This document shows positions 59,048-60,777 of a stretch of DNA of 64,000 bases, in pieces. This stretch comes from Escherichia coli (lineage in GTDB: Bacteria > Pseudomonadota > Gammaproteobacteria > Enterobacterales > Enterobacteriaceae). A program made the position numbers and the translations under genes. The notes beneath the pieces were generated by a model. That model was given only the letters and a program-made list of their open reading frames with translations. It did not search any database and was not told where the DNA came from. Numbering within the stretch: the first letter of the stretch is position 1; every line of letters starts with the position of its first letter. The stretch is taken from the NCBI RefSeq assembly GCF_030013595.1, contig NZ_CP122768.1; one strand, 5' to 3'.

Positions 59048-60777
59048 AAGTGGTTCTTCCGCAACCTGGGTGGAAGAAAATGGATGAAACTTTCTGGCGA
59101 ACAAGGATCTAAGCTGTTTTAAGTTATGGGCAACGCAATGCACTCTCTTAAGACACTTCTACAGTTACCTTGCGGATGGCGATGCAGTCGACAAATTATT
59201 AGCTCTGACGGTATAACCCTCCATCTCCACGGAAAACGCAAAACAGCACAATGTCCTGAATGCTTTAAGCGTAGCGACTCTGTTCATAGTTGTCGTCGGC
59301 GCCGGATACAGCATCTACCCTGCTCAGGGCAGACGCTATGGCTTGTATTTTCCGTCCGCCACTGGTACTGCCGTAACCCGGCTTGTTCACGTAAAATTTT
59401 TGCCGAGTCGCTTGCTCCCTTCGCCAGTTCACACCAGCAGTCTTCACAGGCGTTACAAAATTAACAACGTCAACTGGGATTAATAGCTGGAGGTGAGGCT
59501 GGAAAACGGGCTGCAACGGCAGTGGGTCTCCGTTGCAGTGCTGATACTCTTCTTCGCAGGCTTATCAATACCCCGGAGACGAAACAGTCAGGCGCGCCTC
59601 ATGTCGGTATTGATGAGTGGGCGTGGCATCGGGGCCACTGCTGCGGTATGTTAATAGTCAATCCTGATACTCACCGTCCCCTCGTCCTGCTTCCCGGCCG
59701 TGATCAGCGTACGCTGGCGACCTGGTTCAGAAAATATCCGGAAATACAGGTTGTCTCGCGTGATCGCAGTGGAGTCTATGCGACAGCAGCACGTGAAGGT
59801 GCACCTCAGGCCAGACAGGTGGCCGATCGATGGCACCTGCTAAAAAATATTGGTGATGAGCCTGAACGAATGATGTACAGATATATGCCTCTGATACGTC
59901 TTGTTGTCAGAGAGTTATCACTGAAGAAATCACCTGAGCCAGAAATATCTGTGCCTGTAGCATCGCTCCGTCGTCTGGAACGCCTTAAACAGCACATCCG
60001 CAAAAAACGGCATCAGCGTTGGACAGAGGTTATGGCCCTGCATAACAAGGGATGTAGTTTCAGGGAAATATCCCGTATTACAGGCCTGTCGCGAGTGACA
60101 GTCAGTCGCTGGGTGGGTTCAGGAACATTCCCTGAAATGTCAACTAGGCCTCCAAAGCGAGGGCTTCTGGACCCATGGAGGGAGTGGTTAAAAGAGCAAC
60201 GAGAATGTGGTAATTATAACTCCGGCCGGATATGGCGGGAAATGGTGGCCAGGGGGGTTACAGGCAGTGAAACCATCGTCAGGGATGCTGTTGCCAAATG
60301 GCATAAAGGCTGGATCCCACCGGTTACTACTGCCGCAAGACTTCCTTCAGTGTCCCGGGTAAGCCGCTGGTTGATGCCCTGGAGAATAATCAGGGGTGAA
60401 GAAAATTATGCTTTCCGATTTATTAGTCTGATGTGTGAAAAAGAACCGGAGTTGAAAATAGCGCAGCAACTGGTACTCGAGTTCTACCGTATTCTGAAAA
60501 CCTAAAATAAATCACAGCTAAGCAGCTGGTTCACTCGGGTCCACGAAAGCGGCTCAGCAGAACTTCGGTGCGTAGCTGCGGGGATGGAAGCTGATGCTGC
60601 GGCTATATGTGAGGCAATCAGCAGTCGCTGGAGTACTGGTGTTGTCGAAGGTCATGTAAATCGCCTGAAGGTGCTGATACGCCAGATGTATGGTCGAGCC
60701 GGACTTGAACTACTTAGGCGGAGGGTAATGAGTCCACTGGCATGAAAATCTTCACCTAGGTTGAGGAAGAGCCACTT
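59048..60777 (+). mobile_element. ISL3-family insertion sequence with imperfect terminal inverted repeats
   Basis: Left end aagtggttcttccgcaacctgggtg (59048-) matches the reverse complement of the right end cacctaggttgaggaagagccactt (-60777); ISL3-like GG(C/T)TCTTCC termini. Confidence 0.65.
59126..60745 (+). pseudogene. ISL3-family transposase interrupted by two in-frame TAA codons
   Basis: Three ORF pieces all in the same frame (59126-59464, 59522-60505, 60506-60745), separated only by TAA at 59462-59464 and 60503-60505; N-terminal zinc finger, GIDEWAWHRGH core and VEGHVNRLKVLIRQMYGRAGLELLRRRVM C-terminus. Confidence 0.7.

Follow-up and report, generated by a model that had tools for sequence, protein, structure and literature searches.

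The locus and its transposase gene

The 64-kb window analyzed here is E. coli chromosome, running in the order wca, rfb, gnd, his and sbcB into a CP4-44-like island. A profile search of its large ORFs identified wcaK/wcaM, rmlB, gnd, hisD, sbcB and an Ag43 autotransporter, and the His leader was also detected. Within the island, between sbcB and cobUST, lies a single insertion sequence (IS) of the ISEc38 group (Table 1). At the orthologous site of strain L73, NCBI annotates an "ISL3 family transposase, internal stop". Genes for inovirus-Gp2 and a zinc-ribbon protein stand upstream of it. Downstream come an incomplete, frameshifted gamma-glutamyltransferase gene, then genes for a phosphotriesterase-related protein, a DMT transporter and a glutamine amidotransferase and, beyond these, cobUST. 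A tRNA scan returned nothing inside or adjoining the element, and Rfam no RNA element at gathering threshold between 59000 and 61000. Among 5,426 complete E. coli genomes, megablast of 59000-60830 detected the element in 3,392. Near-full-length copies are present in 2,783 of these, and about 2,780 genomes share the insertion site; the median copy number is one per genome.

Table 1. Coordinates of the IS, its parts and its right-hand flank in the 64-kb window.
Feature	Position	Strand	Remarks
Outer left terminal repeat, arm a, TGTCAACGACGGATGAAAAGTG	59031..59052	+	All 22 nt identical to the start of one IS100 end
Inner left inverted repeat, GGTTCTTCCGCAACCTGGGTGGAAGA	59052..59077	+	Portion described in the initial annotation
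ISEc38-group (ISL3-family) transposase pseudogene	59126..60745	+	539 codons plus stop; 540-codon frame with two nonsense codons
Zn_ribbon_ISL3	59243..59377	+	aa 40-84, Pfam
TAA codon 113	59462..59464	+	TTA (Leu) in intact alleles and ISEc38; lineage-specific
DDE_Tnp_ISL3, first half	59603..59872	+	aa 160-249, Pfam model positions 1-97
IstA-like HTH-1/linker/HTH-2 insert	60026..60319	+	aa 301-398; splits the ISL3 DDE domain
DDE_Tnp_ISL3, second half	60365..60724	+	aa 414-533, Pfam model positions 117-239; cut off by TAA460
TAA codon 460	60503..60505	+	CAA (Gln) in intact alleles and ISEc38
Inner right inverted repeat, GGCTCTTCCTCAACCTAGGTGAAGAT	60748..60773	-	Sequence read on the minus strand
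Outer right terminal repeat, arm b, TGTCACGAACAGTGCAAAAGTG	60773..60794	-	2 mismatches to the other IS100-type end
Spacer between IS end and ggt fragment	60795..60817		23 bp; no match to native ggt or to anything else compared
ggt 3' fragment	60818..61117	+	About 100 codons; flanking DNA, outside the IS

The initial annotation had described an ISL3-family element whose whole 540-codon frame is free of frameshifts and broken by two TAA codons alone, and translation and alignment agree with it on both counts. A program-made ORF list splits the frame into three (59126-59464, 59522-60505 and 60584-60745), and its natural stop is a TGA at 60743-45. Since a chance frame of 540 codons would hold about 25 stops, the preserved frame is a real signal. 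Alignment of the window ORF with intact copies contains zero gaps, which shows that no frameshift has occurred in it. Over aa 31-535, the conceptual product scores 345.1 bits against the NCBIfam model transpos_ISL3 (NF033550; cut-off 180 bits). Pfam recognizes Zn_ribbon_ISL3 and DDE_Tnp_ISL3 in it, the latter in two pieces. Zinc ribbon, DDE_Tnp_ISL3 domain, single long ORF and terminal inverted repeats are all common to canonical ISL3 elements and the element in the window. The transposase exceeds the ISL3 profiles in length by about 135-165 aa, owing to an insert between Pfam model positions 97 and 117.

The closest named relative of the element is ISEc38 (NCBI product name "ISL3-like element ISEc38 family transposase"), with which the window copy shares the single 539-aa ORF, the zinc ribbon, the split DDE domain with its IstA-like insert, and both inner and outer terminal repeats. 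The ORFs are 95.1% identical at the nucleotide level, with 80 differences in 1620 positions (80-86 across the two copies compared, L002 and L003) and no indels. At the protein level 44 of the 539 codons differ, the two stops included, so that aa identity to the copies named ISEc38 by NCBI is about 92%. The ISfinder convention for isoforms is roughly >95% nucleotide and >98% aa identity, and the window copy is probably a sister sub-lineage rather than an isoform of reference ISEc38. Unlike ISEc38, this sub-lineage consists mainly of one fixed chromosomal copy, which is here a pseudogene.

Two nonsense codons and the probable decay of the gene

Each stop is a one-base change, TTA>TAA at Leu113 and CAA>TAA at Gln460. 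The product upstream of the first would be the 112-aa zinc-ribbon N-terminus alone (59126-59461), and the second takes off the last 80 residues, within the second half of the DDE domain. An autonomous IS requires an uninterrupted transposase gene; here the gene is interrupted by TAA113 and TAA460 and carries the NCBI pseudogene flag. Sequencing or assembly error as the source of the two codons has next to no probability, and is refuted by identical 61-mers carrying TAA113 in 718, and TAA460 in 2,345, independent complete-genome records.

The otherwise perfect preservation of the frame could suggest an element that is functional as it stands, with the stops serving as natural ORF boundaries or being passed by programmed readthrough. 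This is very improbable. When the stop positions were compared with active relatives, more than 100 close homologues proved to encode all 539 aa in a single unbroken ORF, the two codons being Leu and Gln, and a multi-ORF layout thus fails. The intact ISEc38 copies, L002 on a plasmid and L003 on a chromosome, have TTA and CAA there. The allele is marked as a pseudogene by NCBI, the stretch from 59000 to 61000 gives no Rfam hit at gathering threshold, and TAA is not known as a recoding codon in E. coli.

A protein search returned intact 539-aa proteins only 3-9 residues away from the conceptual product of the window. Their contigs place them at the same locus, between the zinc-ribbon gene and either the phosphotriesterase gene or an IS66 element. 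Four such orthologous alleles (L196-L199) differ from the window ORF by 6-9 nt and carry TTA and CAA at codons 113 and 460; in one of them, L196, collinearity with the window extends over 5.6 kb at 99.5% identity. Assembly GCA_017722695.1 is an example of a strain reported with the intact allele. These alleles argue that both stops are derived, and that the intact state is rare but still segregating. They led us to drop the idea that stop 460 is ancient and universal at the locus. Intact alleles were seen in draft, metagenome and Logan assemblies, and none was found at the locus among complete RefSeq genomes. Mis-assembly with a plasmid copy is a conceivable origin for them, and this counts against the reading that we prefer.

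Other lineages carry other combinations of lesions. TAA460 is the sole lesion in L006 and TAA113 the sole lesion in strain CUVM53 (L200), while TAA88 occurs together with TAA460 in ST131 (L004). In L007-L009, TAA460 is accompanied by 2 bp gained in a G-run at about 60252, and L007 also has TAA113. The 61-mer with CAA460 on a window-type background was present in 19 records, mostly ETEC-type plasmids. At this locus TAA460 is near fixation, whereas TAA113 is present in roughly a quarter of carriers. The suggestion of a recent inactivation therefore stands in part: intact alleles exist at the same locus only 6-9 nt away, but the stops are not private to one strain. Pseudogenization appears to be ongoing and polymorphic, shallow in sequence terms yet widespread.

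All four combinations of states at codons 113 and 460 occur on near-identical haplotypes, and TAA460 is also found in a different context, on the plasmid copy L010, which is 4.8% divergent. If each stop arose only once, recombination or gene conversion must have spread it; otherwise the same mutation recurred. Recurrence of the same stop would hint at selection or a mutational hotspot over pure drift. Several independent knock-outs at one locus (TAA88, TAA113, TAA460 and the 2-bp gain), the near fixation of TAA460 and its presence on the divergent plasmid copy, and the Glu or Pro that P0102 and P0094, two further proteins, have at codon 460 would all be compatible with truncations that were selected. 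The host might gain from silencing the transposase, or the 112-aa zinc-ribbon peptide might inhibit related transposases in a trans-dominant manner, a role that truncated IS proteins play elsewhere. We regard selection as improbable, however. Multiple lesions are just what is expected when a gene that is not needed decays neutrally, and recombination in the island region can spread one allele widely. In addition, missense changes are found across the ORF including the N-terminus: the window and L006 differ by 7 nonsynonymous and 0 synonymous changes.

The ratio of nonsynonymous to synonymous change (dN/dS) in the ORF is about 0.3 between lineages and 0.37 between the window and active ISEc38, rising to 0.74 among orthologous alleles (window versus L004). 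Such a pattern would be expected if purifying selection had acted for a time and constraint was then relaxed.

It is thus reasonable to think, with a probability of roughly 0.88, that the locus holds a single ISEc38-group IS at a fixed E. coli island site whose transposase gene is decaying by ordinary mutation. Two independent point mutations each truncate the transposase, and the terminal repeats persist on both sides of the copy. The copy would then make no transposase of its own and be inert unless one is supplied in trans. Generic fixed IS pseudogenes of E. coli islands likewise occur as the same orthologous single copy, with lineage-specific nonsense or frameshift lesions, a lost duplication and degraded neighbors, and the window copy shows no essential difference from them.

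Ends of the element and flanking sequence

The initial annotation had placed the boundaries at 59048 and 60777, flanked by inverted repeats of about 25 bp. Such repeats are present, but they are merely the inner portion of a 42-43-nt imperfect inverted repeat (59030-59072 versus 60753-60795). The boundaries themselves had to be moved outwards by 17 bp on each side, to 59031 and 60794, when copies were compared. This comparison took in the window, six other copies (L002, L003, L005, L010, L011 and L013) and 123 metagenome or viral loci. In differing contexts, homology among copies always reaches TGTCA at 59031 and TGACA at 60794, which argues that the true mobile unit spans 59031-60794 and is 1764 bp long. 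The scan of viral contigs for IS ends gave chance matches only.

The inner 26-nt repeats begin with GGYTCTTCC, and we take them to be ISL3-type termini. Outside them, on each side, lie 21 further nt of IS100 type, since each 22-nt arm shares 1 nt with the inner repeat. The mobile unit therefore extends 21 bp beyond the ISL3-type repeats, a figure that rises to 56 bp at the left end in relatives from Salmonella and Enterobacter. Because the arms appeared "swapped" in L003, the possibility that the outer 21-bp arms are a palindromic target site was considered. It was rejected, as the arms match the two ends of IS100 and, among 140 metagenome ends, occur in every combination (a/b, b/a, a/a and b/b) with homology always ending at TGTCA.

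The absence of a clear target-site duplication, already remarked in the initial annotation, was borne out at the inner and the outer boundaries alike. Neither definition gives a 5- or 8-bp direct repeat around the window copy; the flank pairs compared were ACATC with GTATG, and TTCACATC with GTATGGCC. The same annotation had the right end abutting a truncated ggt paralog. The fragment is real, and over 60824-61117 it matches the 3' end of the native E. coli gene at about 92.5% identity, but pairwise alignment shows its homology to begin at about 60818, 23 bp past the end of the IS. Having lost 12 bp between GGTAGC repeats and, with a frameshift, 1 bp in an A-run, it is an old pseudogene itself. 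A longer or intact ggt at this locus was not found in E. coli, where searches returned the fragment and native ggt only.

The missing duplication and the degraded ggt fragment nearby point to a later rearrangement at one junction. Two IS copies may have recombined, or DNA next to the element may have been deleted. Insertion followed by an adjacent deletion, as first proposed for this site, is plausible. In metagenome contig L169, however, the junction between IS and ggt is kept while the left side is a pic-type autotransporter island. This arrangement suggests that at least one junction has been reshuffled by either route, and makes recombination between IS copies an equally good account of the missing duplication.

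IS100-type ends and protein module in the ISEc38 group

The outer 22 nt of ISEc38-group ends correspond to the terminal repeats of IS100, an IS21-type element, with TGT...ACA tips, and the window copy keeps both arms. They come in two forms of 22 nt each, a (TGTCAACGACGGATGAAAAGTG) and b (TGTCACGAACGGTGCAATAGTG). In a scan of one genome per species, form a occurred about 48 times in Yersinia pestis, as the IS100 tip followed by ATCCACTTATATC; form b is the opposite tip of IS100. In Salmonella and Enterobacter relatives that are 82-83% identical at the aa level, the 56-bp left arm matches the L1+L2 region of IS100.

The target-site duplications carry the likeness to IS100 further. ISL3-family elements usually generate 8 bp, whereas duplications in ISEc38-type relatives measure 5 bp, the same length as those of IS100. 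Three independent ISEc38-type insertions show them: GCTCC in L010/L013, GCAAG in L094 and GTTGA in Salmonella (L202). IS100 in Y. pestis, 1954 bp long, is flanked by 5-bp duplications in 20 of 31 copies. The window copy is without a duplication. The 5-bp length argues for an IS21-type integration geometry. As a separate observation, a 47-bp palindrome inside an IS3-family orfA consists of the two arms alone, a mini-IS100 with a 5-bp CTGTC duplication.

The insert that splits the DDE domain is homologous to the N-terminal end-recognition module of the IS21-type transposase IstA. Its residues 301-386 are 34% identical to residues 9-98 of IS100 IstA (E 3e-11), whereas the DNA arms are identical. 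Residues 302-398 of the transposase align with residues 10-107 of IS5376 IstA, whose structure is solved (PDB 8b4h/8q4d; E 2e-10). IstA recognizes the L1/L2/R1/R2 terminal repeats through HTH-1 (residues 1-39), HTH-2 (55-104) and the minor-groove linker between them (PMC10122671). Four DNA-contacting residues of IstA are named there; the ISEc38 protein has R, T and R opposite R31, T92 and K95, and V opposite K32. The NCBIfam model transpos_IS21 scores 48 bits, below its cut-off of 160, and this match is confined to the HTH region (aa 303-394). The istA/istB gene pair, the IS21-type DDE domain and the beta-barrel domain of IS21 are absent, and only one ORF is present.

The ISEc38 group thus appears to unite the catalytic protein of ISL3 elements with end recognition of IS21 type, seen in its DNA as well as its protein. 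This architecture is a property of the whole group and not of the window copy. The purifying selection seen on the ISL3-type ORF between lineages argues that the encoded protein matters. A further step would be to regard the ISEc38 group as natural ISL3 x IS21 hybrids, in which an ISL3-type DDE transposase would have acquired the entire HTH-1/HTH-2 module of IstA while the tips turned into L1(/L2)/R1 repeats of IS100 type. They would move from these outer tips with 5-bp duplications, by means of their own enzyme or of IS100 IstAB. We put this forward tentatively, as possible rather than probable. Our full-text literature search found no description of an ISL3/IS21 chimera in ISEc38-type elements, and ISEc38 itself appeared in MobileElementFinder lists only.

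Shared ends raise the question of whether the window copy might be dead as to its transposase and mobile nonetheless, moved in trans like a large MITE by IS100 IstA/IstB or by the transposase of a plasmid ISEc38. Such mobility would be compatible with, and add to, the decay of the gene proposed above. Both 22-nt arms are intact in the window and identical or near-identical to IS100 ends, and 5-bp duplications flank ISEc38-type units and IS100 copies alike. L010 has its 5-bp duplication despite carrying TAA460, although that stop may post-date the insertion. An IS100 lies 6 kb upstream of the element in strain L73, but none is found within the 64-kb window. The window copy shows no sign of movement: it has no duplication, its site is shared by thousands of genomes and the median is one copy in each. 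We consider mobility in trans unlikely for this copy.

As framed, the finding is of little consequence. The copy is an ordinary fixed IS pseudogene, and its status is already known, since NCBI annotates the locus as a transposase with an internal stop in the public annotation of thousands of E. coli genomes. Its main use is as a lineage marker, with clades carrying different lesions. Of more interest to transposon biologists is the occurrence, in one group, of an ISL3 catalytic protein together with an IS21/IS100 recognition module and terminal repeats. A functional hybrid would offer a clear example from nature of joint acquisition of a DNA-binding domain and its binding sites. It would also suggest that two IS families found together in islands of pathogenic E. 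coli and Yersinia cross-mobilize, and the transposase-dead copy in the window would then remain a substrate for IS100.

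Terminal repeats of ISEc38 relatives and a 47-bp palindrome

The Enterobacter and Salmonella relatives of ISEc38 (L204 and L202), with 82-83% amino acid identity to it, have a left arm of 56 bp resembling the L1+L2 repeats of IS100 (51 of 56 positions identical in L204) and a right arm of 22 bp. A 5-bp duplication, GTTGA, is present at L202. A lone ISEc38 left end, 56 bp long and including the arm, was found in E. coli CU37RT-2, where it is cut off by an IS3-family element that we take from its terminus to be IS629-like. This solo end adjoins a psiE pseudogene, which is also the neighbour of the plasmid ISEc38 copy (L002).

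A 47-bp palindrome composed solely of both IS100 terminal repeats (TGTCAACGACGGATGAAAAGTGATCCACTATTGCACCGTTCGTGACA) lies within an IS3-family orfA in E. coli SMS-3-5 (NC_010498.1), with a 5-bp CTGTC repeat on both sides, and taking out 52 bp regains the orfA frame (...VVLETATLSEMELADYCRR...). The same palindrome is present in at least 66 further E. coli records. Such a structure resembles a minimal MITE derived from IS100.

Coordinates of the features in the window and in the compared loci
Feature	Record	Position (strand)	Remark
naRNA4 (REP-derived nucleoid-associated RNA)	window	1132-1491 (-)	four tandem matches, between first ORF and wcaK
Ag43/Cah autotransporter ORF	window	47245-50520 (-)	
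"IS102 RNA" (RF00124)	window	50385-50588 (-)	strong Rfam match, 253 bits
Codon 460	window	60503-60505	
Spacer	window	60795-60817	23 bp
Phosphotriesterase-related gene	window	61157-62191 (-)	intact, 344 aa
Left arm	L204	~1371-1426	
Left arm	L202	~1371-1426	
Lone left end	L005	401-456	
47-bp palindrome	L012	1801-1848	
Putatively reshuffled locus	L169	5282-9397; 10940-12672	

The right flank and other features of the window

The spacer that separates the ggt fragment from the end of the IS (GTATGGCCTTTATGTACTCACTT) matched neither the IS nor native ggt. In strain L73, the phosphotriesterase-related gene beyond the fragment is interrupted by an IS3-family element, and at three orthologous loci (L007-L009) it is truncated. 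A metagenome contig (L169) has the same IS-ggt-phosphotriesterase right junction as the window, and to the left of its IS lies a 1371-aa SPATE autotransporter, which by eye we presume to be Pic-like. This combination points to an exchange of segments between islands by IS-mediated reshuffling. Elsewhere in the window, the RF00124 match covers the start of the Ag43/Cah ORF and continues upstream of it.

Transposase lesions in orthologous copies

Codon 460 encodes Gln in active copies and is a stop in most chromosomal copies; two other proteins have Glu (P0102) or Pro (P0094) at this position, and TAA460 was found too on a divergent plasmid copy (L010). Repeated mutation at this site or gene conversion may explain the pattern. 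The lesions of the orthologous copy differ in other E. coli lineages: codon 88 is changed from TCA to TAA in the ST131 copy (L004), and a G-run near window position 60252 has grown by 2 bp in several B2-like strains (L007-L009). These lesions could be used as clade markers.
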